NCBI RefSeq assembly: GCF_963506605.1
Contig: NC_083282.1
Span: forward strand, 868,001 to 932,000
DNA from: Zootoca vivipara
Lineage: Eukaryota
Length of the DNA stretch: 64,000 bases
Reading direction: 5' to 3'
Part shown: piece after piece, positions 14,882-53,096 of the stretch
How the letters are laid out: each line of letters begins with the position of its first letter
Numbering within the stretch: the first letter of the stretch is position 1
Notes under the pieces: generated by a model
Seen by the model: the letters and a program-made list of their open reading frames with translations, nothing else
What the model was told of the DNA's origin: nothing
The model's database searches: none
Position numbers and translations under genes: made by a program

Positions 14882-15106
14882 GTTTGCATAGGACGCACCC
14901 ATAATGCTACACGGCGCTTTTCCTCGCCTTTGATGCAAGAATCGAACAAAAAAGCGAGATATTTTGCTCCTGTAATGTCTGAAGGCTAGTTTTGATATTT
15001 GGACGAAGTCGTCGTAATTATCCTCACAATCCAGTTGGCTTTTGTTTACGGGAGGGGGAATCATTCACCATGACCTGTATGTCTATGTATAATACAGCTA
15101 TAAATA
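14882..15106 (+). promoter_or_regulatory. Type-3 Pol III promoter of Y3 (DSE, PSE, TATA)
   Basis: Octamer-like GTTTGCAT at 14882 (-249); SPH/ZNF143-like CACCCATAATGC at 14896; PSE TCACCATGAC at 15065 (-66); TATAAATA at 15099 (-32). Confidence 0.85.
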
Positions 15107-15130
15107 TATTTGTAGGCACTTGGTAGTTTT

Positions 15131-15232
15131 GGCTGGTCCGATTGCAGTGGTACATATAATTAATTGATCACAGTCAGTTACAGGTTTCTTTGTTCTTTCT
15201 CCACTCCCACTGCTTCACTTGACCAGTCTTTT
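15131..15232 (+). ncRNA. RNY3: Y3 RNA (Ro60-associated)
   Basis: GGCTGGTCCGA...TTTCTTTGTTC.TTCTCCACTCCCACTGCTTCACTTGACCAGTCTTTT closely follows vertebrate Y3; lower stem GGCUGGUC/GACCAGUC with bulged C; upper stem GCAGUGG/CCACUGC; T4 terminator; next to PDIA4 as in human. Confidence 0.93.
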
Positions 15233-18168: not shown

Positions 18169-18304
18169 CAGGCATCCTCAAACTGCGGCCCTCCAGATGT
18201 TTTGGCCTACAACTCCCATGATCCCTAGCTAACAGGACCAGTGGTCAGGGATGATGGGAATTGTAGGCCAAAACATCTGGAGGGCCAAAGTTTGGGGATG
18301 CCTG
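18169..18304. mobile_element. Palindromic 136-bp hAT MITE
   Basis: Near-perfect hairpin CAGGCATCC...GGATGCCTG; further copies at 43776, 45901, 49852 and 57645. Confidence 0.85.
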
Positions 18305-18462
18305 CTCTAGGTTTTGCATAAGCCTTCCTGGCATGCACCAACACACACTCAGTTTCCCAAGCTTGTTTTTTGGGCATGAAGAACATTGAACCTTACTATT
18401 TGGGTGCCAGTCCACAATTATTATTTTAAAGTTTGCCTTGTGTATTTTTTTTAATAGAAAGT

Positions 18463-18634
18463 ATTCCCGCTCTGGCGGGAAGGCAAACGGTGTTTCTGTG
18501 CGCTGCTTTGGTTTCGCCAGAAGCGGCTTAGTCATGCTGGCCACGTGGGCTCCCTCAGCCAGTAAAGAGAGATGAGTGCCGCAACCCGAGAGTCGTTCAC
18601 GAGTGGACTTAACTGTCAGGGGTCCTTTACCTTT
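18463..18634 (+). mobile_element. Sauria SINE, 3' half
   Basis: Matches the full copy at 59827-60170; (ACCTTT)n tail. Confidence 0.8.
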
Positions 18635-18661
18635 ACACTATTTTTTTAAAAAAAATGGAAT

Positions 18662-18733
18662 ATTGTTCACAGTCAGTAGATCTCCCTTTTTCACTCTCTA
18701 CTCCCTCCCGACGACTGCCGTTCACTAGTCTTT
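18662..18733 (+). pseudogene. Y1 RNA-like relic lacking its 5' strand
   Basis: ATTGTTCACAGTCAGT..AGATC..pyrimidine loop..ACTGC..ACTAGTCTTT follows the 3' two-thirds of Y1; no GGCTGGTCCG 5' arm found. Confidence 0.7.
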
Positions 18734-19800
18734 GTTTTAACACTTTTCTCTTCTGGCCACATCAAAAACACAAGGGCTTGTATATAAAATATGCAATTCT
18801 CCAATAACTTAACTGAAAACACATCCAGAGTATACAAATGCCTTATTTTCACTGTGATGCATACGGATGTTGTCTATTGGATCCCCCCCCCTTCAACGTT
18901 GCATTTCAAGGGAAACAGTCATTGTTCCCTTTGTATTAATACAAACATGGGGGTTGGGCATGAGACTCTACAAGGATTCCACTTAAAACTGCCGATTGTG
19001 ATTTTAACATGTTTAAACAGTAGGAATCTGTAGCCCTCCAGATGTGGTGAGTCTACAACTTCCATCCCCCCTGACCATTGGCCGATTGTTCCCCTGGGCC
19101 TGGCCTAAATGGTTTGAATGAGGAGGTCAATAGCATCACCCACTCCTGTCTGCCGGTTGGGAGAAATAGGGGGGGGGGGTTCAGCATGCTTTCCCCTAAT
19201 ATTTAAGTAGCTTCTTAGTAAGGCCCAGCCTAACATCCTCCTTCCCAAGGCGAAGGACAAGATTTTATTTATTTATTAAATTTATATACTGCCCTTCATC
19301 CAAAGACCACGGGGCAGTTTACAATACAGCATAATGGTGCAGTTCAGAGTACAGTACCTAAGTTGTATTACCATTCAAAGTACAAAAAGCCGGTTGGATG
19401 GGCAGCTGAATCTTACTCCCAGCAAGGATGATGGACAAGCATTCTGCCCTGATCTTGCCTGCAGTGGCCTGTCTTAGGAAGTGCGGGACTGCCGGGCACA
19501 ACACCTCCCTGACACTCACCAGCAGTGGCATCCTGTGGCCTTAGGTCAGGGTGGGCCATCACACGGCCCTTGAGGCATTTTTTGTGGCCCTCTGCAACAT
19601 TTGGGCATGCATGAAAACCAACAGTGAAGGCACTTGCTCGGTCTCCCTCCTCCCTCCTGCTTGTGGCCTCTAACCTCACCCGTGAGCCATGGGGCTGCCT
19701 TTCGCAGTCACCCTAGCAAACTTGCAGCATGCTATTCCGGGGGGCTTGCAGCAGCATCCATGGGTACAGGCAGGGGACAGCTGATCCCCTAAAACAAATA

Positions 19801-20740: not shown

Positions 20741-21156
20741 CTAAAGTTCTTCTTTTGTCCTACTTAGTTTGGTGGCATATTCTTCTACAAATTTGCTCAA
20801 GCTTTCCAGATCTCTTTCTCCACCTTCAAATTTAATAGGATCCTTTTTCTTATTGCTAGGAGCAAAATAGATGGTAGGGAATCCTTCCACTTTGTAATTT
20901 TCACTGGTGACATCATTGGCAGTAGCATCCATTTTGGCAATGACCAGGTTTTTCTGAGTTTTGTATTTTTTACCCAGCTCCGTATAAATGGGCTCAAGCT
21001 TCTTGCAGTGTCCACACCAGGGAGCATAGAACTCTATGAGAACATCAGTCTTTGGATCCATCACTATAGATTCAAACGTTTTGCCAACTACAATCTTCAC
21101 AGGACCCTTGTTATTTTTTGGTATTGGTTGGGACTTCAAAATGGGTTTCAGTTTAC
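20741..21156 (-). CDS. PDIA4: PDIA4 (ERp72) exon 10, last coding exon
   Basis: Acceptor TAG|; [10 protein letters not shown] thioredoxin site; C-terminal KEEL ER-retention signal, then stop. Confidence 0.97.
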
Positions 21157-21549
21157 CTAGGAAAGGAAACAGGAAAACTGTCATAAAAGACCATGTCCCT
21201 TGCAGTTAGTTCACAGAAGTTGGCAACAACACTACTAACAGAGATGAGTTACTGCCAAACCCCACCCCCCTGATCCACAGCTCCAGTTTTTCTGTAAATA
21301 GCTCCTTGAATGATCACTTGTGAAAAGTCTAATCACAAAATACAGTTTGACAAAAATTGCCTTTCACAGCAATTTTGGTCCATAGTGGGACTTGTTGCAT
21401 ATTGATCCATAGGGAAGAACAAAACTAAAATATTTCCTATTTTGCTATTTAAGATACAGAATTCAGCAGCCAGGTTGCTCACTGAGGCAAGATGGGCCTC
21501 ACTGCAAATCAGTTTCAGGGCCCAATTTAAAGTAATGGGTTTTTACCTA

Positions 21550-22690
21550 CAGTGGTACCTCGCTAGACGAATGCCCTGCTAGACGAATTTTTCGCTAGAT
21601 GAATGTGTTTTGCGATCGGAGGTTGCCTCGCAAGACGACAAGGTTTTCTATGGCTGCTGCTTCGTCTCGCAAAGCGTGGCCATAAAAACCTCCGATCACA
21701 AAACCTACAGGGTATTCCTCTAGCGAAAGGGGAACCAGCTGTAGCGTGGAAAGAAGGCAAAGGAAGATGAGCTGTCAGCGCCTGTCAGCTGATCTTCCTT
21801 TGCCTTCTTTCCGCGCTGCAGCTGGTTCCCCTTTGTGTTCTGCTGGTCTCTGCCGGCTGCCGTGAGCAGTGAGGGGCAACCGGCAGAGACCAGCGGAACA
21901 CAAAGGGGAACTAGCGCGGGAAGAAGCGGAGGAACAGATCCGTTCCTCCGCTTCTCCCCCCCCCCCCGCCGCCTCGCACAGAGCTGGCATCCAACGGGGA
22001 TTCTGAGAGGCCCCGTCCGATGCCAGCTGTGAGCCAGACGGCGGGGGGGGGGGCCGAAGTGGAGGAACGATCCGTTCCTCCGCTCCCCCGCCGCCTCACC
22101 CGACAGAGCCGGCATTTGACGGGGCTTCTGAACCCCCATCAGATGCCAGCTCTGTTGGGCGGGGTGGGGGGGACAGACGAACAGAGAGAAAGCTGCCCGG
22201 GATCTGTGCACGCTCAGCAGCAGGGGGAGAGGAACGAAGGAAGAGAAAGGGCAGCTTTCTCCACCGACAGCAAGGAGCTTTTCGCTTTCGCACCGTCGTG
22301 CTTCGGCAGTGAAGGGGCTTTTCGCCACCTGCCTGGCTCAGGGAAGGCAGGCAGGCAGGCGGCAACAGCTCCGGGGCTGTTGCCGCCTACCTGCCTGCCT
22401 CCCCCAAGCAAGCGCCCTTCCCCGAGCTGAAGCGCAGCGGCCGCTTGCTTGGGGAAGGCAGGCAGGCAGGCGGCAACAGCCCGGGGAAGCTCCGGGGATG
22501 TTGCTGCTTGCCTGCCTGCCTTCCCCGAGGAAGCGCCCTTCCCCGAGCCAAGCGGCCGCTGTGCTTCAGCTTGGGGACTGCTGTCGGCAGCGGCGCTTGC
22601 TCTCTTGGCTCAGGGAAGGCAGGCAGGCAGGCGGCAACAGCCCAGCAAGGCTCCGGGGCTGTTGCTGCCTGTCTTCCCCTGGTTTTACTA
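21550..22690. mobile_element. Tigger-like element with GC-rich internal tandem units (PDIA4 intron 9)
   Basis: Starts TA-CAGTGGTACCTCG; duplicated ~115-bp unit and three GGGAAGGCAGGCAGGCAGGCGGCAACAGC-containing units; right end not resolved. Confidence 0.55.
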
Positions 22691-23065
22691 TATCTATGTG
22701 AGGGTTTTATTCCCTTGTCAGTTCCCTTGTGTTGCCCTGAGCAAGCTAAAGCCACTAACCAATTTAATAAATAATATTAATAACCTGGTGAAGAGCGGAA
22801 AAGCTGGCTCACTATTTGTGACATTTTGGGTGGTTCATCTCAAGACAATTTCCCTATGATAAAATAGTAATATCAAGTATGCACAGGGTAGGACTAGATA
22901 TTTCAAACTATTTTTGCTGGCATTTGAAGGGGGAAAGGCTCAGTATTCTCTTTAAATGGTGCTACATCCATGTTTATCCAGCTTCTGTGAAAGAGTGAGA
23001 GAGAACTAAGCTCATGAATTACACAGGGGGCTGGCAAACCTACACGCAAATTTAAGGAAGCAAAA

Positions 23066-23113
<48 letters not shown>

Positions 23114-23243
23114 AGCCTGCCCATCTGGCTGGGTTTCCCCAGCCACTCTGGGTGGCTCCCAACAGACTATTAAACAAAATAAAACTTTAAAAACTTCCCT
23201 AAACAGGGAAGCATGGATTGTCCACAATCCAACTACAGTTTAC

Positions 23244-23477
23244 CTTTTTTGAAGGAGACAACAAATTCCCTCAGCACATCAGAATCAAACTCTTCTGGTT
23301 CCATGGCATACTTTTTACCACCTTCATCAAAGATAGCAGCATTGACATCCTCTCCACTGTCCACAAGTCCCAGGTCCTTTATCTCAGAAGAAAAGTCTTC
23401 TTCATCCGCAATTGCAAAAGTATATTCTGGGAAGTCCTTAGCCACTTCCAAGACTTTGTTTCGCCAGTACTGAGTAG
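23244..23477 (-). CDS. PDIA4: PDIA4 exon 9
   Basis: ATQYWRNKVLEVAKDFPEY...FKKG; CAG acceptor, GTAAA donor. Confidence 0.95.
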
Positions 23478-23649
23478 CTGAAGACAACAAACACACAATG
23501 AAGTTAGAGACATCTGGTTTATTCTTAGCTGGTTGCAGATTCTTGGAGCTCATGACCAGGACTTGGAAATAGGGGCCTTTGCGAGAGATTGGTGAAGGAG
23601 ACTGAAAGAGGGTGAGCTTGTCTCTTGGATTAAGGCTGGTTGCTTGTCT

Positions 23650-24530
23650 GAACTGTTTGATCAGAAAACTGGGCCCAAATTAACAAAATGAAGTTCAGTA
23701 GGGACAAAAGTAAGCTACTGCACTTGGGGGATACCTGGCTTGCCAGTTGCACATGTGAAAAGGACCTTGGGGTCTTGGTGGTCTACAAGCTCAACATAAG
23801 TCAACCATGTGATGCAGCAGCAGCAAAAAAGCTAATGCTCTTCTAGGCTGCATCCACAGAAGTCGAGTGTCCAGATTAAGGGAAGTAATATTACCACTCT
23901 ATTCTGCCATGGTCAGACCACAACTGGAATACTCTGTCCAATTTTGGATGCCACAATTTAAGAAGGATATTGACAAGCTGGAAGGTGTGCAGAGAAGGGC
24001 AACCAAGATAATCCAGGGTCTGGAAATGAAGCCATATGAGGAACAGTTAAGAGAGTTGAGTATGTTTAGCCTGGAGAAGAGACTGAGAGGAAATATGATA
24101 GCCATTTTTAAATATTTCAAGGGGTGTCACATGGAAGATGGAGCAAGCTTGTTTTCTCCTATTCTGGAGGGTAGGACTCAAACCAAACAGAATTGTAGCA
24201 TTGGAATGGACCACGAGGGTCATCTAGTCCAACCCCCTTGCAATGCAGGGATCCTTTGCCCAACATGGAGCTCAAACCCACAACCCTAAAATTAAGAATC
24301 TTATGCTCTACTGACTGAGCTCTCTTCCAGTTAACTTTGACAGTAAGAGCTGTTACAGTGGAATGGTCTCCTTTGGGAGGCTGCGGACTCTCCTTCCTTA
24401 GAGGCTTTTAAGCAGACGTTAGATGGTTCTCTCGCATGGATGCTTTAGCCGAGATTCCTGCATTGCAGGCAGTTGGACTGGATGACCCTTGGGGTCCCTT
24501 CCAACTCTACAATTCTATGATTGTATGACT
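23650..24530 (+). mobile_element. CR1 LINE 3' part with a nested tRNA-derived SINE (~24190-24320, -)
   Basis: REVILPLYSAMVRPQLEYSVQFW..DIDKLEGVQRRATK; ATTCTATG tail. Confidence 0.85.
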
Positions 24531-24589
24531 TCATTGGGGCCATTCCAAGTATGAGATTGGGTACAACACTAACTAAAAGTAATACTTAC

Positions 24590-24746
24590 CAACACGATAA
24601 TCAAAGCTGAAGTCCACTGTATAATAAACAACTACCAGAGGCCTTTGGGTGTATCTCTTAGCATCATTGGCAGATTTGCGATGACCCACAAGAGGCAAGG
24701 CATGCTTCACCACATAGTCTTTCATTTCAGTGGCATCAGTGGAATC
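24590..24746 (-). CDS. PDIA4: PDIA4 exon 8
   Basis: DSTDATEMKDYVVKHALPLVGHRK...FSFDYRV; canonical splice sites. Confidence 0.95.
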
Positions 24747-25392
24747 CTGTTTACAGAAACAAAAATCAGTGGGATGTGACCGTTGGAGGAGTTTACCATC
24801 ACAGAAGGCACTGACCCTAACCTTTTCTTTAAAAAAAACCACCACCACCACGCAGGAGAAACAACAGTTTAGGAGGTCTGATGAAAATATTTCAGTTTTC
24901 AGTCTCAGGAAATAGGATTAGCTACAGAATTCAGGATTTCCTGCTATCTTACAGAAAGCCTGGCTACCATGATTACAAGACAGGTTGGGTGACAGGCTCT
25001 GGCGATGTGCAGCTTACTTCCAAGTGTCTGCTAAGCGAAACAGCTTATTCCATTACATGTTGGCTCGCTAGATTTCTTTCTCTCCACCCCTGCCACAACA
25101 ATACACCCCCCCAAAAAAGCCTAGATTTTTGTGCTCTACTCTCCACCAAGATTTTTCATTTCTGAAGCCTCCCTAAGAACCCGTTACCATTTTCTCTTAG
25201 CTTAGTCTCTCCTGCAAGTGACTGTTCAGATTTTGCACATCTATCACTTTGGAACTTGCCAGGGTTTGCTTCAACTGGGCACACTCAGAATTCTCATATG
25301 CTCATTTCAGTAGTCACAGCTCTAGCACCAAGAAATAGGAGACAAATAAATGAAAGAAAACCAACTTGTTTGTACTTGACAGAAGTACTCAC

Positions 25393-25544
25393 TTTAATGT
25401 CTAAAACATGCATTTTAGGCTCATATTTTGAGTGAAATTTTTCAGGTTGCATCACTACCAGTTTTCCTGGGTTCACTTTCAAAAAGCTTGAAATTTCATT
25501 GCTGAAGGTATGATGGAACTTGAATTCTTCTCTTAGGTTATTAG
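25393..25544 (-). CDS. PDIA4: PDIA4 exon 7
   Basis: ANNLREEFKFHHTFS...HVLDIK; GTGAG donor. Confidence 0.95.
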
Positions 25545-27106
25545 CTGAAAAAATATACATAAAAGGTTTGGAGGAATACCAAAGAGAAGAAAGGAAATTG
25601 CTGGGTCAGAAATACAAAAGTATTGACACCTGGAGTGAGGGTTTGAAACAGACCAGCTGGGTCTAGGGTACTGCTGAGTTCCCAGATCTCCTCTTGGAAG
25701 GATTTATTGCCCAGATAACTCTGGTCTTAAGTTCTGTTGCTTAATATATGTAATGATATGGTTTCTTACAGAGACTGAGTGGATACACATCCGGTTGCTG
25801 TTGTTTTTTCCCTTTTGTATTTGTTTTATGCATTTTATGTTGAGCTTGAAAACTCAAATGAATGCAGAACGATTGAATATTTTGCATAGCATTACTCTCC
25901 TTTAATTGTGGAACTATTTATGTGACAAAGCTTCAAACAGTACACACAAATGCAATAATGAACCACTACCAACCTCCACATGGATCTGGAAGCTCACAAA
26001 AGGGCACGAAGGCAATGCTCATCTCTAGTTTGTCCCCAGCAATGAGAATTAAGAGGCACTCTCTCTCTTGATCAGGTGCTTCCATGTAGCTATGAAGACT
26101 GTTGTCAGACCTCTTCCATGAACGTGTCTAATCCTTTTTTTAAAAAAGGCCTGTTCGCTAGTGGCCTCACCCCCATTCTTGTGCTTTTGCATTCTGTAAA
26201 TTAATTACTCATTGGCATGGTTTGGACAACAGTATTTCCCATCATGAGACCTAGTTGGGGAAAATATGAGGCTCATGGGCTCCCTTGCTCTTCCAAGGGA
26301 AGGTGAACTGCAACTAATTCAAAACTGGATGTGGGAGTTTTCAAATCTCCTTCTGTCTTGCATGAAGGAAGGAATCTTGCTAGGTTTGTTCTTGTAACAT
26401 TACATCTGAACCAAACCAATGTGTAGAGTAGAACCTAATATTTTCTGTCCTGAAGCTACTACAAATCTATTTCAGTGGATGACCAAGAAAGTTACACTTG
26501 CAAATTTCTCCATATTATTCATAATTTTAAGAACCTTTCATGTATTCCCCGTAGTCATCCCCCCCTCAAAGAGTCTGAATAGCATTTGTCTCTCTTCATA
26601 GGGAAAGAGTGCTAACCACCTAAACAATTTAGTAGTTCTCTCCAGTACTCTGTTGGAGAATGCCCTTTCTGAGCTGGGATGACTAGAACAGGACCGAAGT
26701 CTTCAAGTTCAAGTCCCAGATAATAAAACCATTCTTTCCTGCTTTAGCTCTTTTCTGTCGCTCTGCACATGCTTGATTACATCAAGAGACACAGATGCTG
26801 CTTCCACTTGCTTAAATTTCATTTTCATGGGCTCATGTGTTTTATACCTATATTTCATGTTCTCTATGAATTCCAATATATTGTTTTTGCCTCCATTCTT
26901 GAGGCAGTGACCCCAGAAAACATCAAAAGGGAAAAGCCAGAAAATGGATGTGGGCAACATTTTGAGAACTGACAAGCCACTGAAGCTGCAAGAAAATAGA
27001 CTAATATTTCTAAGATGCAAGTTTGTCTCCTAGTCTGCAAAGCACTTTCCAAGTGTAGGAATTGAGCAAATGTTGATATACTATGGACAAGAGATAAAGG
27101 GCTTAC

Positions 27107-27265
27107 CAGCATCTTGATACAGTTGGTAGGCTGGGTCCTGGTCTCCTTTGAAAACCCCAATAATAATGACATCGTCTCCCTCTTTCACAAATTCTTGAAC
27201 CTGTTTGACAGCCTGTATCTGTTTGGATGGAGGGCCAGCCTGTTCTATCATGTAATCAACAATGC
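27107..27265 (-). CDS. PDIA4: PDIA4 exon 6
   Basis: GIVDYMIEQAGPPSK...YQLYQDA; GTAAG donor. Confidence 0.95.
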
Positions 27266-28518
27266 CTGGTGAACAAAAAGAAAAACACAAACTTGTGTTA
27301 TTGCTTGACAAAAAGCATTTTATTTCTTAAAGTGAAAACTGGTTATGTTTTGCAAGTGCTCTCTTCTCTGAAAGAGGCACTAGGAGGTGGCCACAAAACT
27401 GCAAATTAACAACATGTTCCAAAGTCTTATTTTCCTCAGGGCTTTTTTTTAAATTAAAAAACCACCTGTTGATAGTTTTATTATTATTCTATTATGTTGC
27501 TGCTAACTATTGCCTTATTAGTGTTAAAGTACAGTAGCAAATAAATCAGATGAACCATGTTGCAAGTTTTCAAACTGAAAGCAGTAATACATATTAAAAA
27601 TAAATAAAGTTTATTTATGACCAAACACAAGCAGTGCCAAGATTCAAAACAACTTTAAAAGTGCTGTCATCATGCAGTACGGAGTTTATCCTGGTTCAAA
27701 ATGATAGGCCTTGTGCTACAGTTACTGCTTGTCTGATTATGGTTCCCTGGTGCTTTGCTAATGTCAGTGAGAAAATAGTGACGCTCAAAAATCCTAGCAA
27801 TCTTCAGAATACAGTGAGGTTCTGTGTCACATCTTCAAGAGCTCCTCAGTTGGTGTGGAATGAGCTCTCAGGCTGGAAGCTTAAACCCACAGAAGAAACA
27901 AGATTCCACTTTCTCCCTCCATTGATAAGCTTATGCCTTAGCCATGAAAAGTGTTGGGGCACGTCCCACGGAGTGTGTCAAAGCAACAGAGAAACACCAA
28001 GTTCTAGGAAGAGTCAGTTGCTTTACTGACAGCATAATGCATTTTCAGTTACATACTGTACAGTTATAGATCCATATTACCCAGCCAAGGGCAGGGGCCA
28101 AGAGCAAACTTGCCTTAAACACAACAGTATTTATACTATATGTTGTGCTGAGTCATTCCCACTTGCTTGACTAGCTGCAGGTGCAAGACAACACACACCC
28201 AAATTAAACAAAACACTGAAATTAACCATTTTGTCCTTTTTCTCTGCATGCATAAACCCTTATATTAACAAAAACTTTCTATAACATTTCAAAATAAGGT
28301 GCAGGCAAATACCAATCACAGACCAATTGTACAAACAGCATTAACAGAAACAAGTAATGCTGCACCACAATAAATGCAGCTCCAATGCCGAAGTCCAGGG
28401 CAGTTTCAACATCATCTTACATACATATAGAATGTAATTCTTAGCTCAGTGTCTATGAAACAAACAGGACCAAACTCACATATTTACTGTGAAGAAAAAG
28501 AAGGTGCTTTACCCATAC

Positions 28519-28724
28519 CATATTTTTCTCTTGGACCATTGTAGTCAAAAGGTTTGCCTTTGCGGAAGATCTTGAGTAATGGATATCCAGAAATGTCAAA
28601 TCTCTTAGCAAGATTGGTTTCAGCAGTAGCATCAACTTTAGCAAGGGGAATTGGAGGTGTTCGCTTGCTCAACTCCTTAGCTGCTTTCTCATACTCTGGA
28701 GCCAGCCGCTTGCAGTGTCCACAC
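28519..28724 (-). CDS. PDIA4: PDIA4 exon 5
   Basis: [33 protein letters not shown]...GPREKY. Confidence 0.94.
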
Positions 28725-29087
28725 CTCAATAGGGAACAAGAATGGGTAACTTGGTAGCCAAAAGCTCTCAAAGATGGAGAGAAATCTATTTTCACTGCTT
28801 GAATAGATAGTCCTGTTCAACTCCCCATAGTGCTTAAAATTCCTGTCTTTTCTGAAGTGCCAATTCTTACATCTGTATCCATTTTGTAGGCAAGTGCCCC
28901 AGAGATGCAGCTGGCTTGAAAATATTGTCAATGTTTTGAGCTGGATCCCCAAGCTCCTATGCAAATTGCAGATAACAGGCATACACACAAAGGACCTTGG
29001 TTATCCAGTGGCTGCTTAATAACTTACATATGCAATGAAAATTACACATTTGCATAGAGGTTCAACAGACTGAATACTTGGTCAATA

Positions 29088-29328
29088 CAGTGGTACCTTG
29101 GTTTAAGAACGGTCCTGTTTAAGAACGATTCGGTTTATGAACTCCGCAAAACTAGAAACAGTGTCCCGGTTTGTAAACTTTACCTTGGTCTAAGAACAGA
29201 ATCCAAACGGTGCAAGGGCCCCAGTGGCGGGAGGCCTCATTAGGGAAAACGCGCCTCAGTTTAAGAACGAATTCGTTTTAAGAACAGACTTCTGGAATGG
29301 GTTAAGGTTGTAAACCGAGGTACCACTG
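29088..29328. mobile_element. Tigger-like MITE
   Basis: CAGTGGTACCT...AGGTACCACTG with TA TSD. Confidence 0.75.
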
Positions 29329-29825
29329 TATTCAAATGCAGCAAACAGGAAGGCAGAAATAGAAAATGATATTTGCCAATCCTCATCTCAAGACATTACA
29401 AGTTTTCATTTCATTTGAATGCGTGCCGCAAAACTAATAAGACTCCAGGTCTACTCCAAGTATTGCCTAGAAGCAACCTACATCAAAAACTGAATACACT
29501 ATATAGCTATCATTTCTGTTACCCAGATTTTTAAACAATTCAAACGCTTGAAAAGATAAACCATGATGTAATGTTTTTGCACATACCAGATAAAAATGTG
29601 CACTGGAGATTACAGAGATACAGCCAGTCCCCTCCCACTAGCTCCAAATTTTTCCAAAGCTCTAAATGCAGCAGGAATATTGACTCCATAAAGCCAAACT
29701 GAACATGCCCTATACTTTTGTACCTGGGGCAGGGCATACGAACTCTGCTTGCGGTTCCTATATCAAATGAAGGAAGAGATAAACACTATGAAAGATAAAA
29801 GGCAAAAATCTCTCTTTTCCTTTAC

Positions 29826-29964
29826 CATGGAGCATAGAATTCAACCAGGATTATGTCAGCCTCGTTCACGACTAAATCAAAGTTTTCGCTGGTCAACACT
29901 AATGTGACTTCAGGTGGTGGGACCCAATCAGGCTGCGAAACTTCTTTCACTTTAGCCACAATTT
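29826..29964 (-). CDS. PDIA4: PDIA4 exon 4 (missing from the ORF track)
   Basis: Hand translation EIVAKVKEVSQPDWVPPPEVTLVLTSENFDLVVNEADIILVEFYAPW; TAG acceptor, GTAAA donor. Confidence 0.95.
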
Positions 29965-31478
29965 CTACAAAAAGAATATGAAGAGAAAAATGAGCAATGA
30001 CAGGTGGAAGGGGCAGCTTGTCTACTGCAAAGGCCTTGCATGTGCAGAAGGAACCAGGTCACCTTTGCCTTGACAATGTTCTCGAAGAAGTGTATCTGAA
30101 GAAGTGTGCATGCACACAAAAGCTCATTCCAATGACAAACTTAGTTGGTCTCCAAGGTGCTACTGGAAGGAATTTTTTTATAATGTTCTCGAACGACAAC
30201 TATCCCTTTATGCGGAAAGAACCTTGGCAGAATACTGCCTGCCAACTAATTCTATTCCCTGCCTATTCCTCTTACATATGCTCAACTTGAATTCTATGTC
30301 ATATTACAGCATGTCAGCACACAGAATTTTTTTTAAAAAAAATCCAATATACTAAATGTTAATCACACAGAAACCTTATCTGTTTGTACGCAGCACTATC
30401 AGTCTTCCAGGCACCCATTTGGAATGATGGAGAACTGGCAGGTTGGGTCTTAGGCTTTTCTGGCTGAGCTATCCAAAAAGCTCAAGACCCTTAATCTCAG
30501 GGTTGTGGCTTTGAGCCCCACATTTGGCAAAAGATTCCTGCATTGCAGGGGGTTGGATTAGATTACCCCCGTGGTCCCTTCCAGCTCTATGTTTCTACTT
30601 CACATCCCACAGGAGTTAAAATGCACAAAAACAAGCCCTTCTTAACTGACTTTGCTCTGAAATTCTATGTTGCAGTTCTACAATTGCACAGAAAAAGGAA
30701 ATTGCTACCACAGTTTTGCTGATTACAAAAATCACCTACAGATTTGCTGCTAGCTCACCTAGCTTGGAGCTGGGGGCAGGAGGCATGGTTCCTAGAAAAT
30801 CCTTCAGTCAACACAGCTTATTTTTCTGGTGATACTGCAATGTGTTTAAGCCATTTTAAAAGCTTTTAATGCAAAATACTCTGCATTAGGATTATTTTCA
30901 TATTACAGTGCTGTGATAAGCATCCTATGTATCCCTTTCCCGGAGCTCCTGCCCCAAGTGGAAATGAAGAGGCCCCTGGTGTGGGGACAGCTAGCACAAC
31001 TCCCTGTGGAGGGAATGACACAATTTCTTTGCATGATATCCAGAAACATGGATATCAATTGTACACGAGTATCATGGGAAGTCAATTGTACATCCTCTAC
31101 CAATGCAAGCTTGCAACATGCCCTTAGAACCACAGGTAGGACCCTCAGACCTCCCTGGCTCTACTTCACAACTTGGACGGTGTCCCTGACCTCTGAAAAT
31201 GCCTCTGCCTTGCCTGGATGGAGGACAGAGGGGTGTCCAGGTGTGGGTCCAGAAGCCAATTTACTGCACAAAGGCAAAAGGTACATACAGGCCCTGTTCT
31301 GCTCTTTTGCCCCGGCCCTTCTGCTACCACGGCCATGTGGCCCCCAGGGGAAAAAAGGATACTCACCCACCTTCCTGTATTTTAGAAGACACCACTCAGA
31401 TTTTGAGTGAACAAAAGGGTGTATTAAACAGAAGAACCTGAGAAAAGCCTGCAGGATCAGAAGTGTGCTGCTGCTCAC

Positions 31479-31684
31479 CTGCTTCTGTTCTGGATCCCTC
31501 ATAATCCACAGGCTGCCCCTTCTTCAGAATTTTGATGGTTGGGTAGCCACTGACGTCAAAACGCCCGGACACCGTGGAGGCTGCTGTAGCATCTATTTTG
31601 GCAACTGGGATGGGAGGGTCATTTTCTTTCAATACTTGGGCTATTTTTTCATATTCTGGTGCAAACTGCTTGCAATGCCCACAC
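31479..31684 (-). CDS. PDIA4: PDIA4 exon 3
   Basis: CGHCKQFAPEYEKIAQVLKENDPPIPVAKIDAT...YEGSRTEA. Confidence 0.96.
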
Positions 31685-32180
31685 CTGAAGAAAAATGAAT
31701 TAATTCTGCAAGAGTTTAACTTCCGCACTCAATTTCTACAGCACAACTTTTGAGAAACTATAGGGCTGGTTTTACAACACAGCAGTCGGGTACGTCACAT
31801 GTCTGTATAGCTTGAACAGGTTGGGTCATATTCTGGAAAGAAACAAAGTCACTGCCCAGAAGGGCAAAGCCCACCAGGAAATAAATCCCAGGGTCACTCA
31901 AACACTGGGGCTTTGCTGGCTGCAGGCATTACTGAAGCAGTGTCCACCCAAGTGCTTCTGGTCTGCTCACACTGCTCCATTCCTCTCTACAGCCATGTAT
32001 GGAGCCGCACAGTCATGTTAAGAAAGGAGTTTGACTAGCAGATTTTAGGTGTTCTTCAAAATGACTATGAACTACACTGTGCAAGAGCAGAGCTGTATGC
32101 CATTCCTGTGGGGCTGCAGGAATCAGCACAGCGTAATCATGGGAACTCTCCAGTACTTTTTTAAAAAGCAGTACCAAGTA

Positions 32181-32415
32181 CCGTGTTTCTCATATTATAA
32201 GACATGTCTTATATTTATTTTTTCCTCAAAAAAACACACTATGGCTTATTTTCAAGGGATGTCTTATTTTTTTCCTCCTCCTCCTGCCACGGCCGGCATT
32301 GCTGCTGCGCCTATCACTATGTCTTATTTTCGGGGTATGGCTTATATTCCCTGAATGCTTAAAAATCCTGCTATGGCTTATTTTATGGGTATGTCTTAAA
32401 ATATGAGAAACAGGG
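32181..32415. mobile_element. pogo/Tigger-type MITE; near-identical inverted copy at 48146-48382
   Basis: TIRs CCGTGTTTCTCATATT...AATATGAGAAACAGGG; TA TSD. Confidence 0.8.
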
Positions 32416-32594
32416 TAAGTCAAGCCTGAGCACAGAAGATTTAGAATTGACCCACACATTCAGAAAAGTCAGAATTGGGTGCAGAATTCCCAAGACTGTG
32501 CCACTTCCGGCAACAGATGTGAAAGCTCCTTGCTTGTGAGATGCTCATGTGAGGGCTCAGTGGAAGGGAGCAGCTGCCAGGATGATAGCACAGT

Positions 32595-33030
32595 GGTCTT
32601 AAAGGATCTACATTGGCTCCCAGGATGTTTCCGCGTACAATTCACTGCTGGTGCTGTCCTTTAAAGCCCCAAATGGCCTCGGCTCAATATACCTGAAGGA
32701 GTGTCTCCACCCCCATCATCCAGCCCAGACAGTGAGGTCCTCCTCCAAGGGTCTTCTGCTGGTTCCCTCACTGGAAGAAGTGAGGTTACAGGAAACCAGG
32801 CAGAGGGCATTCTCGGTAGTTGAGACTCCACTGTGGAACACCCTCCCATCAGATGTCAAGGAAATAAACAATCATATGACTTTTGGAAGACATCTGAGGG
32901 CAGCCATGTTCAATGAAGTTTTTAATGCTTGATGTGTTATTGTTTTAATTTGTTGGGAGCTGCCCAGAGTGGCTGGCGGAACCCAGTCAGATGGGCGGCA
33001 TATAAATTATTATTGTTCTCATTATCATTA
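32595..33030 (+). mobile_element. L2-type LINE 3' end
   Basis: Same family as 13170-14266. Confidence 0.8.
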
Positions 33031-33384
33031 TCATCGCAAACATCACACAGACACTTTTTGCAATTGGATGTAAGTGCACCATGAGATTATGCACTCCCAC
33101 TCCAGCATGCACATTTCAACAGCACCAACCATGTTTTTTTCTTCTGAACATTTTAATTCCTTCCCATCTCCCATCAACAATTGTGGTTAAGTACAGAAAA
33201 GGGCATTTAATATATAGCGCACCGATTTAAAATAAACACAAAGAGCACCAAGTAGCTTTTGTCTTGTTTTATGGGAACTCACAGCGGGAAGAAGAAACAT
33301 CCTACTGCAAGTGCAGCATAGCAGACATGAAATATAAATTAACTTCAAGGAGGAGGATGGAAACACTGGGACAATCAGACTTAC

Positions 33385-33547
33385 CATGGGGCATAGAACT
33401 CCAAAAGCACAGTGTCCTTGCCTTCAACAAAAGTATCAAAGTTTGCATCATTCAATACGACAACACCATTTTCCTCTTTTATTTCTGAACTATCATCTTC
33501 ATCATAATCATCAATGTCCTCGTCATCATCATCAACACTGGTTTCCC
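33385..33547 (-). CDS. PDIA4: PDIA4 exon 2 (missing from the ORF track)
   Basis: Hand translation GETSVDDDDEDIDDYDEDDSSEIKEENGVVVLNDANFDTFVEGKDTVLLEFYAPW, including the acidic N-terminal tract. Confidence 0.95.
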
Positions 33548-38026: not shown

Positions 38027-38098
38027 GGGGATGTAGCTCAGTGGTAGAGCGCGCGCTTCGCATGTGTGAGGTCCCGGGTTCAATCCCCGGCATCTCCA
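38027..38098 (+). tRNA. tRNA-Ala(CGC)
   Basis: 72-nt cloverleaf GGGGATG...CATCTCCA; G3:U70 identity pair; anticodon loop TTCGCAT; intact A and B boxes; T6 terminator at 38102. Confidence 0.96.
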
Positions 38099-47665: not shown

Positions 47666-47939
47666 ATATGTAGCAGTTTTTAGTGTTCAGCAGAAATGCT
47701 CCATTTGCTGAACAATATCATACAGCAAATTTACTCTTACTGTTGATAGATGGATAATGACACTAGGACAATCATTATCTCCGTGGCAACAGTACTGAGT
47801 ATGTCAGAGAAACATTGCACATGGAGCTGATGCTACTTTTTACAGTCCTGCCTCGGCTTCCTCAGTCAGATACTCTTTCTGCAAAGCCAAGATGCCCAGA
47901 GTACAAGAGCAACCAAGGGCAACTCCAAGGCTGCAGATT
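47666..47939 (-). ncRNA. SCARNA13: Small Cajal body RNA 13 (U93), tandem H/ACA
   Basis: 274 nt; AATCTGCAGCCTTGGAG...CTGTTGCCACGGAGATAATGA...TGTCATTATC...AACAGTAAGAG...GATATTGTTCAGCA...CTGCT-ACA-TAT tracks human U93; two H boxes (AGAGTA) and terminal ACA+3 nt; upstream of GLRX5 on the opposite strand, as in human. Confidence 0.9.
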
Positions 47940-50019: not shown

Positions 50020-50643
50020 TCTCGGCCGAGGTCGGGCTGCTCGGACTTCCAATGGGTGGGGCGGAGGGATTCGGACGGAGCAGGGCTAAGCGAGGCGGGC
50101 TGCTCTATCTCCACTGCCACAGGCCGCGCGCTTCGCTGTGCTCTTCTCGAGAACCGCCGAGGGGCCGGACCGCGCAGGCGGCGGGTCTGAGGCAGCTAGA
50201 CGCTTAGCCTTGACGCCCACACCACTACCACACCGGAAGCGGAAGTGCCGCCGCCGCCGCTCCCTCCCTCTCGTCTTTTCAAAACTCCAACTTTCCCCGC
50301 CTCCCATGGGAAAGTGACAGAAAGACCTATCAATCACAGCACAGCGCGCTGTACTTCCGGTACTTCCTTGGCGCAGTCATAGGAGTCAAACAGCTCCCCT
50401 CCCACAGGAGAGATTTTATTCAAAGGACCCCGTGTGGTACGATTGGCCATTGGGGGACGAATAGGAAGCGGCCGGCCGGCCTTTCCGTCCCTGCGTGTAC
50501 GGGGCGGGGCTAAGGAAGCGCAGACAGCCCCGCTTAAACATTATTGGTAGCCCGAGCGTGAGTGACAGAAGCAGTATCGAGGCCTGCGTCCCTTTGGCGA
50601 GGCCTCGAGGTCGCCTGAGGGAGCCTCCGGCGAGCCCGCAGCC
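50020..50643. promoter_or_regulatory. Bidirectional CpG promoter (GLRX5 / scaRNA host)
   Basis: Tandem ETS/GABP sites CCGGAAGCGGAAGTG (~50233) and ACTTCCGG (~50353); several CCAAT boxes and a GC box. Confidence 0.75.
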
Positions 50644-50965
50644 ATGAGCGGGTCCTTCTGCCGGCTGCCCGCAGCCCTGCGGCGGTGGCGCGACGTGCGG
50701 CCCACGACACTCTTGGCTCGGCCGCTGAGCCAGGCCGGCCCCGGAGGCGGCGGAGCGGAGGGCGGTGAGGGCGTCGCTGCGGCCGCCGGGTCGAAGGAGG
50801 CGGTGGGGCGCCTGGTGCGCGCTCACCCGGTGGTGGTGTTTATGAAGGGCAGCCCCGCGCAGCCCCAGTGCGGCTTCAGCAACGCTGTGGTGCAGATCCT
50901 GCGCCTGCACGGCGTCAGCGACTACCGCGCCTACGACGTCCTGCAGGACCCCGGCCTGCGCCAAG
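50644..50965 (+). CDS. GLRX5: Glutaredoxin-5, mitochondrial, exon 1
   Basis: Arg-rich transit peptide; [24 protein letters not shown] monothiol CGFS motif; G|GTAGG donor. Confidence 0.96.
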
Positions 50966-53096
50966 GTAGGCGGGCCCGGCGACTCCGCGGAAGAACTCGG
51001 CGGGCGGAGGGGCCTCTGCGCCAGCGCCAGCCCCGCGAGGGGAAGGCTGGCTTGGCTTGGGGGGCGGCAGGGAAACCTCGCTGGCTTCGTTCTCCCTCTG
51101 GAAAGGGGGGCTGCTGCTGCTGCTGCCCTCCTGCATTTGCCCCTCTTTCCTTAGAAAGGCCTGGTGTGGTTCCACGTACAGTATTACATTCCCTGGCGGG
51201 TGGGAAGCGTCGCTGCGGGTTACGACTGTGGGGCCGGGCGTGGGACGTCTTCTCTGCCGTGGTGCCCAGTGCCCTTCCCCGCCGGGGAAATGGGAAGAGT
51301 GGGCGCTGCTGGGTGCCACTGCCTCTTTCGGCAGAAGAGCACAACCCTCCCCTCTCTCCTTCAATCTGATGTTTCCCGAAAGGCCGTGTGTGAAGTGTTG
51401 CGTGTGCACATGGACCCATCCAGGCTGCTGTAGCCTCCAGCGCTTCTCTCCACCGGCCTTTCCTGCTCTGGAGCAGGCCCAGACAGGGGAGGGGGGCATA
51501 CGGGCCACTTGGCCCGGGCCTCCGATTCCAAAGGGGGTCTCGGTCAGCATATTCACAATCAGCAAAATGAAAAAAGGAGCACAGCGTAAAAAAGGGGGAG
51601 GCACATTATCTACCTGGCCCGGGCCTCTGCCTGGCTCTGCAAGAGCCTGCTCTGGAGTAATGTGAGGGGAAGCGGTTGCCCTTTGGTCCTGCCAACTGGA
51701 TGGAAATGTCCATGCAAGTGATCGGATGATCCTTGTAGGATCGCCAGTCTCTTTTTGCAACTCAGGAGGGCCCTGCAACCAAATTGAGATTTCCAGTTGC
51801 AGGGTTTGCATAAGTTGTTCTTAATAATATTTTATTATTTATTAAATTTATATACTGTACTGCCCTTCATCCGAAGACCTCAGGGTGGTTCAGAAGATAA
51901 AAATACACGATAAAAGCACAAAATAAATACTTAAAAAAACAAAGCAAAACAAGAACACCCCCCTCCCACAAGCACATTTAAAAGGCTGTAGAATATAAAT
52001 CACCCAAAGGCCTGGTTGAAGACAAACGTTTTTGCCTGGTGTCTAAAGAGTTATGAGATTGTATCATTTGTCAGAGCACTTCTAGAATATACACAAGAGC
52101 TTGCACCACTCCCTCAACTCCAAATGTCTGTCAGGAAGAGATAAAGAAATTGGACAGAGCTAAAGAATTTGTATTTGCCAAACAGAGCAAATAGGTGTTG
52201 AAAAGCAGTAAAATATCCCAACAAAATTTTTAATAAGCAAAGACATTTAAGGTTAGGTCCAAGAAGTGCTATATCTTTGTTCAAAAGCTTCTGTTTAATG
52301 CATTAGGAAAGTCTTTGTGTAGTTTCTGTGAATCTGTTGGCCAGGGATCAGTGCTAGAATTTGAATCTTGAATAAGTTGCAGAAAGAAAAATTTCTACTC
52401 AATCATGAATCAGGCTTGGCCGAACCTTCCTCACAGGTTGGTTGTGAAAATAAAATGTGGAGGTGGAGAAAGATGTGCTTTACCTTGAGCTCCTTGAAGG
52501 AAATGTGGGATATAAATGTAATAGTAAAAATAAGAATGCATTGCTATTTGAACATGCTAAGTAGCCATGGAATATAGAGTGACAGTTGAAAGGAAAAATG
52601 GGGCCGTGAGAGCAGAATCTTTTGCTTTGAAGGAAAATGGCTGGATAGAATCTGGAACCAGGAACTCTCCTTTTTGGAGGAAGGATACACTGCAACATTT
52701 GTTTTGCAGGCCTCCCTTGTATACAGGCAATGATTGATTGTGCTGTGGTTTAAAAAACTAAGCCTAGGGCTTGCTGATCAGATGCAGGAGCAGGGACCGA
52801 GCAACAGGAGCTCACCCCATCGCGGGGATTTGAACCGCCGACCTAATTGGCAAGCCCTAGGCTCTGTGGTTTAACCCACAGCGCCACCAGCAAAAGGACA
52901 GGCCCCTTGCCCCAAGTGGAGGAGGAGAAGAGAGAAGGTGATACAGACTTACAGCCAATAAGATTTGCAAAAAGGCTATGGGTTGTGGGCTTCCTTTCTT
53001 ATCTCCAGTATAGTCTTAACTGCCTTGCCTGTTCAAAAACACTGTTATCAGTTGTCTAATGTATTTGGTTTAACTTGTCTTTCTGTTTTGATTCAG

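Follow-up and report, generated by a model that had tools for sequence, protein, structure and literature searches.

The window, by which we mean the whole 64,000-nt stretch of DNA that was analysed (G000:C7:868001-932000), contains an intact Y3 RNA gene at positions 15131-15232 on the plus strand, recognized by the Rfam Y_RNA model (RF00019, 80.1 bits) and by comparison by eye with mouse Y3 as given in PMC6060611. Its promoter comprises a DSE formed by an octamer and an SPH site (14882-14913, +), located by a motif scan and used as the reference for the second DSE described below, together with a PSE at about −66 and a TATA element at about −31 (15065-15107, +), which were read from the sequence and named by motif. 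At a distance of 3.4 kb from Y3 lies a broken gene, consisting of a DSE remnant with octamer-like and SPH-like sites (18312-18342, +), a 5'-truncated SINE (18467-18636, +), a deletion breakpoint (18661/18662, +) and a 72-nt relic of Y1 (18662-18733, +), in which the loop, the pyrimidine tract, the 3' strands of both stems and a shortened T-run terminator are preserved. A PDI gene follows 2.0 kb beyond the relic (20744-33467, −), with three thioredoxin-type segments and a last exon best matched by PDIA4, and its matched exons provide the 3' syntenic anchor of the locus.

Upstream promoter remains

The DSE remnant was located with a scan for an octamer (≤1 mismatch) plus an SPH site (≤3 mismatches), using consensus motifs that were picked after the site had been seen. 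Over 264 kb and both strands the scan returned four matches, two of them in the window, namely the Y3 DSE at 14882 and the relic DSE at 18312, with a chance expectation of about 0.003 per 400-nt one-strand stretch; it recovered one of the two intact Y promoters, missing the DSE of Y4. In the relic, the octamer-like 8-mer occupies 18312-18319 and the SPH-like site begins at 18324, and by these consensus motifs the relic carries the DSE of a type-3 Pol III promoter. The contig of organism D, one of the relatives considered below, aligns from 18321 only and so does not cover the octamer of the relic.

The proximal part of the promoter is missing. The best PSE candidates near the relic had 8-9 mismatches out of 18 when compared with the PSEs of Y3 and Y4, no TATA-like match was obtained for the relic, and between Y3 and PDIA4 there was no Y 5' stem strand with fewer than 3 mismatches out of 11. 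One stretch, AAATGGAAT, suggested by MAFFT as a 5' stem remnant, was rejected as a low-complexity alignment. We infer that the deletion took the PSE, the TATA and the first ~38 nt of Y1, which would amount to about 110-120 bp if the spacing was like that of Y3. A type-3 Pol III gene requires both a PSE and a TATA, and since these are gone together with the 5' strand, the relic is predicted to make no Y RNA. The first-pass annotation had described an octamer and SPH pair resembling that of the Y3 promoter, a 5'-truncated SINE between this pair and a 3' portion of Y1, and the absence of PSE, TATA and 5' stem strand, all of which our scans bear out.

Just upstream of the relic DSE, comparison with other copies revealed a MITE-like palindromic DNA element (18169-18304, strand unassigned). 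Its 8-bp flanks do not match each other, whereas in all seven other copies listed the two flanks agree to within 0-1 mismatch, and one side of the element was probably also removed by deletion.

Identity and position of the Y1 relic

The relic fell below the threshold of RF00019, with no match even at E≤10, and a DNA search of the genome with the relic as query returned only the relic itself. A profile built from seven other Y copies of this genome, from which the relic was excluded, recovered it with E=2e-4 in 364 kb. The human gene order is EZH2, RNY5, RNY4, RNY3, RNY1, GHET1, PDIA4, as given in an excerpt of PMC8606216, and since the relic lies between Y3 and PDIA4 it occupies the slot of Y1. 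Its loop letters 18662-18677 are identical to mouse Y1 at 16 of 16 positions (by eye, against the sequence in PMC6060611) and match this lizard's Y3 at 15 of 16, and the last 21 stem letters (18710-18730) match mouse Y1 at 16 positions and this lizard's Y3 at 13 (by eye). At the positions of these two stretches that are diagnostic between Y1 and Y3, the relic carries the Y1 letter in four of four cases, again by eye. Raw local alignment scores preferred Y3 (49-53) to the in-genome Y1 copies (25-32), because the latter lack the 3' half. The junction of the relic is not an assembly error, since 18637-18860 is covered without a break, and with two other letters, by a contig that comes from a separate study of this species.

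The remaining Y1 body is itself damaged. The upper-stem CAC reads GAC (18710-18712), the lower-stem letter 18723 is a C, and the terminator consists of three T, below the 4-T criterion, a 4-T run coming one base later. In an excerpt of PMC4726728 the Ro60 site is described as a helix with a single bulged C and the upper stem as GUG-CAC; the relic has neither such a lower stem nor such an upper stem, as its 5' strand is absent. An RNA run from the same species (X21; 150-nt reads, of which ~6% were read, not a small-RNA library) placed a single read on the A-rich flank and no read on the body, which is evidence neither for nor against transcription.

Compared with RNY1 (RF00019), the relic is alike in its loop and 3' stem sequence, its type-3 DSE and its position between Y3 and PDIA4, but differs in lacking the PSE, the TATA and the 5' 38 nt, in its broken stems and in its orientation, as it lies on the strand of Y3 (+), whereas human RNY1 is on the strand opposite to the other three Y genes (PMC11825425, legend of Fig. 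1). It is Y-derived and non-functional like the dispersed Y retropseudogenes, but unlike them it has a DSE, synteny, a 3' end and no poly(A) after its body, while the five Y1 retrocopies described below are scattered 5' fragments. Rodent Y4 and Y5 'fossil genes' at syntenic sites have been reported in PMC4702372, according to which Y1 is highly conserved in rodents. The relic resembles these fossils as a unitary Y pseudogene in cluster position with promoter remains; unlike them, the lost paralogue here is Y1 and most of the promoter has been deleted. Our verdict from the sequence is that the relic belongs with them as a syntenic Y fossil gene, that is, a unitary pseudogene. Taken together, synteny, the diagnostic letters and the outcome of the genome-wide search for an intact Y1 (below) support the identification of the relic as a real Y1 orthologue at the syntenic site and a fossil of Y1 loss. 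This agrees with the first-pass annotation, which had also noted that the relic runs in the orientation of Y3, opposite to that of human RNY1, and that the hallmarks of a retrocopy are lacking, both of which hold; it had overlooked the possible 11-12-nt TSD of the SINE.

Other Y genes, retrocopies and an apparently split Y cluster

Genome-wide searches covered 1.44 Gb in 48 contigs. With RF00019, for which 51 of 283,167 candidates were scored, four matches were obtained among those 51, corresponding to Y3, a gene on contig C12 and two Y3 retrocopies. A degenerate 5' stem pattern gave five matches genome-wide (control, one) and a degenerate 3' stem pattern six (control, four), with no Y1 or Y5 gene in either search; what the two patterns returned was Y3, Y4, pieces of Y3 and chance matches. 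Four loci (L007, L040, L055 and L057) were dropped as chance matches, and L006 and L010 were set aside as short Y3-like pieces in a common repeat; these two (C2:5.42 Mb and C13:54.72 Mb) belong to one repeat, each copy of which contains 19-20 nt identical to the 5' end of Y3. As far as the completeness of the assembly and the strictness of the patterns allow, no intact Y1 turned up elsewhere in the genome, and Y3 and Y4 look to be the only intact Y genes.

Y1 is represented outside the locus by five retrocopies, all 3'-truncated and scattered over contigs C1, C2 (two copies, C2 and C2b), C3 and C5 (L060, L037, L061, L038 and L035, respectively), which made up three of the seven matches to one loop pattern and all four matches to the other, two being common to both. 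The existence of these copies indicates that the lineage formerly expressed Y1. Each was compared with the majority of the others, from which they differ at 6/40, 7/52, 9/36, 4/51 and 6/52 sites; among the retrocopies found, Y1 thus appears to have left no young copy, all five being old. In comparison, a Y3 retrocopy on C9 (L004, C9:31536259-31536354) differs from Y3 at 0 of 94 positions; it lies inside a DNA-transposon-like element, and Y3 is still generating copies. All the Y1 retrocopies end within or after the loop, and the source states of the loop are AG in three of them and TA/CA in two. One further stretch on C12 at 17.87 Mb (L063 1480-1540, −) has a start like the 5' end of a Y gene followed by a loop like that of organism F, but was at chance level by the controls (6 control matches, E=0.08 in 3 kb) and was not counted as a retrocopy.

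The gene on C12 (1558544-1558635, −) was identified as Y4 by eye in comparison with human Y4, and has a TATA-like element at −31 and a PSE-like element at about −66. An EZH2 exon (C12:1598425) is found 40 kb away, with Y4 upstream of it and in the opposite orientation; the other EZH match is EZH1. In this assembly the Y cluster is found on two chromosome-scale contigs, with Y4-EZH2 on C12 and Y3-Y1-PDIA4 on C7, the latter by SCARNA13 and GLRX5. The 200 kb around Y4 and the 100 kb to the left of the window contained no further Y gene that could be detected, nor was a Y5 found. When 142 selected ORFs were scanned against Pfam, the genes on the left-hand side of Y3 (C7) and of Y4 (C12) received no name. 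To the right of PDIA4, SCARNA13 (47666-47939, −) and a GLRX5 exon (50566-51366, +) lie 14-17 kb away; in human, these two are on a different chromosome from PDIA4. From its gene content, Y3-Y1-PDIA4 looks like a moved block. The neighbourhood of SCARNA13 and GLRX5 suggests a second breakpoint to the right of PDIA4.

This arrangement corresponds to the tetrapod Y5-Y4-Y3-Y1 cluster, which extends from EZH2 to PDIA4, in that Y4 lies by EZH2 and both Y3 and Y1 lie by PDIA4, but it differs in that the two halves are on different contigs and Y5 is missing. In birds, a conserved Y4-Y3-Y1 cluster has been reported in which breaks mostly coincide with assembly breaks (excerpt of PMC4378963, the synteny figure of which covers birds, alligator and turtle), whereas the 364 kb examined here on both sides of the split are free of N. 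If the split is real, Y genes need not remain clustered. It had gone unseen in the first-pass annotation. The literature searched contained no report of Y1 loss in lizards or of a split Y cluster, and Y RNA is not mentioned in the portions of PMC6381762 and PMC13005343 covered by a term look-up; this coverage does not extend to Mosig 2007, Perreault 2007 or Farris 1999, so that such a report may already be in print.

Timing and cause of Y1 loss

Of the 23 sequencing runs listed for the stretch, seven were from five other organisms, whose shares were small, and five of the seven were aligned. Informative read-based cover of the body, from 18678 onwards, was available for organisms B, D and F, while organisms C and E (runs X15 and X19) gave SINE words only. 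Organism B had no cover of 18300-18449. In B and F, 30 loose letters were visible 5' of the aligned body, the 5' stem, PSE and TATA lying outside this view. These loose letters are Y1 loop; they match the Y1 retrocopies and extend 12-13 letters past the breakpoint of this genome, and no joint to the A-rich flank was reported for either organism, i.e. both lack the junction seen here. The loop of B and F shares a TA dinucleotide with retrocopy C2b, and the 5' loop letters of the relatives fit the Y1 retrocopies and not Y3. Compared with this genome, the terminator is one T longer in B, D and F (four versus three) and 18720 is a C in all three; B and F, in addition, carry a C at 18710 and three extra letters at 18677. 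These letters, together with the loop of B and F, indicate that the decapitation and four small lesions are private to this lineage, and on this comparison we take the decapitation to be recent.

Other changes are common to this genome and its relatives. A C stands at both 18719 and 18723 in all four species (for organism B, the lack of change at these two sites was deduced from the tally of change kinds), and 18713 is a purine in this genome, B and F, with organism D having a 3-nt gap there, as read from one contig with a depth of 4.3. In Y3, Y4, mouse Y1 and human Y4, 18713 is a T and 18723 a G; the pairing partner of the former, A16, is kept in four of the five Y1 retrocopies, and that of the latter, C8, in all five. 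Since the stem-breaking changes are common to this genome and the relatives, Y1 was probably dead before the deletion, and thus probably already in the ancestor of this species, B, D and F, with the qualification that the upper-stem changes of B and F could be wobble-tolerant and that loops vary in live Y RNAs.

Each relative has also accumulated damage of its own, comprising a 2-nt loop loss and a change at 18712 in B, three changes in F and the 3-nt upper-stem loss in D. These six private body events in 200 site-branches compare with about 8 expected at the flank rate, which includes a poorly aligned poly-C stretch; at one fifth of that rate 1.6 events would be expected (P=0.006), and at half of it the observed number is unexceptional (P=0.22). 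Over all four species, changes amounted to 6/56 in the body and 5/90 in the flank, both small counts. The body rate of the relatives is consistent with neutral change, making strong constraint unlikely and mild constraint possible.

We consider it probable that Y1 stood in its ancestral place and died by point changes in its stems ahead of the divergence of this species from B, D and F, and that the SINE and the loss of the promoter and 5' end were later decay. The stem changes would have inactivated the gene first; the SINE, the loss of PSE, TATA and 5' stem and the further small lesions would have followed in this lineage, likely as neutral decay, leaving a locus predicted to have no type-3 Pol III transcription, no Ro60-binding lower stem and no GUG-CAC upper stem. 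The loss was probably tolerated, given that Y3 and Y4 are intact and that vertebrate Y RNAs are reported to be redundant in a replication assay, by way of the upper stem (PMC4726728). A separate rearrangement would have parted Y4-EZH2 on C12 from Y3-Y1-PDIA4 on C7. The first-pass annotation, correct on orthology, was in this respect only partly supported: it had ascribed the inactivation to a deletion at the SINE junction, which is at odds with the 12-13 loop letters kept by B and F and with the stem-breaking letters at 18713 and 18723 that B, D and F share.

A different history, which we regard as unlikely, is that the ancestor carried a divergent yet transcribed Y1 that survives in B or F and was lost in this lineage alone, through the deletion or through the SINE landing between DSE and PSE. 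By eye, a helix in shifted register, formed with Y1 nt 10-14, would be lengthened by the common letters at 18719 and 18723 at the cost of a 2-nt bulge, and both B and F retain the 4-T terminator, F also the upper-stem CAC; this genome has four private lesions in the 72-nt body as against four substitutions and one indel in 297 nt of flank, and the weak C12 match at 17.87 Mb resembles the loop of F. That match, however, is at chance level, the CAC has been lost in D and two loop letters in B, and the body of the relatives changes at the speed of the flank. Moreover, none of the retrocopies that reach the end of the loop (three of five) has the derived loop, and the Ro60 site as reported in the excerpt of PMC4726728 needs a single bulged C. 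Distinctly unlikely, in our estimation, is the specific form in which B and F still transcribe a re-registered Y1, with a two-base bulge replacing the canonical Ro60 site and the final loss here occurring after the cluster split.

The SINE itself bears on a further possibility, namely that Y1 was canonical and working until a deletion arising at the SINE junction destroyed it. Comparison with other copies shows the SINE, which we take to be of the Sauria type, to be 5'-truncated with an internal gap. Of its 169 letters, 18 depart from the majority of 15 other copies, seven of the differences being private and non-CpG; this private share (7/169) is slightly higher than the branch of this species in the flank (3/90, or 4/297), and the SINE may be older than supposed here. 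Both of its ends are flanked by an 11-12-nt T-run/A motif (18443-18454 and 18639-18649, both +), which may represent a TSD but is of borderline significance (P of 0.008-0.010 versus genomic controls and 0.06-0.10 versus AT-rich controls); many other copies of the SINE bear TSDs of 8-27 nt by eye. The contig of organism D tracks 18321-18452, with 56 further letters after 18452 and 137 before 18321 unaligned, and we infer that D is probably without this SINE. Only 25 nt separate the 3' end of the SINE from the breakpoint, and, with D seemingly devoid of the element, both SINE and deletion could be lineage-specific; the TSD, besides, is only borderline. Even so, the relatives without the deletion share the stem-breaking letters, implying that Y1 was no longer canonical when it was deleted, and the possible TSD on both sides suggests, at its borderline level, a clean insertion, with the breakpoint some 12 nt beyond the right copy, so that we find a deletion caused by the SINE quite improbable. 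An origin of the relic by tandem duplication of Y3 and subsequent decay, or as a Y retrocopy that landed beside a fortuitous DSE-like motif, is very improbable, since the relic's 15 of 16 loop letters in common with this lizard's Y3 and the best raw alignment score for that gene are set against the Y1 letters at all four diagnostic positions, the exact syntenic slot of Y1, the relatives' 5' loop letters agreeing with the Y1 retrocopies rather than Y3, a DSE on the right strand and side, and a 3' end that all five Y1 retrocopies lack.

With Y1 dead in the common ancestor, as we favour, lizards living on Y3 and Y4 alone would represent a natural knock-out of a gene kept in mammals and in the bird cluster, and could be used to tell a specific role of Y1 from redundancy. 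As the fossil is present at different stages in four species with ~6% divergence, the order of its decay would be directly readable.

Several other features were noted in or near the window. An intact-looking tRNA-Ala(CGC) gene is located at 38027-38098 (+), after the GC-rich stretch 5' of PDIA4. Inside PDIA4, the region 21720-22580 contains several long near-perfect hairpins with many weak matches to miRNA families, which are probably palindromic repeats. About 15 kb to the left of the window, at C7:849.6-852.9 kb (L050 1573-4940), there are Ty3/gypsy-type gag and protease frames, with a chromodomain frame on the other strand. On C12, a partial 7SK match of 40.7 bits at 1506305 (L017 6305-6574) is probably a retrocopy.
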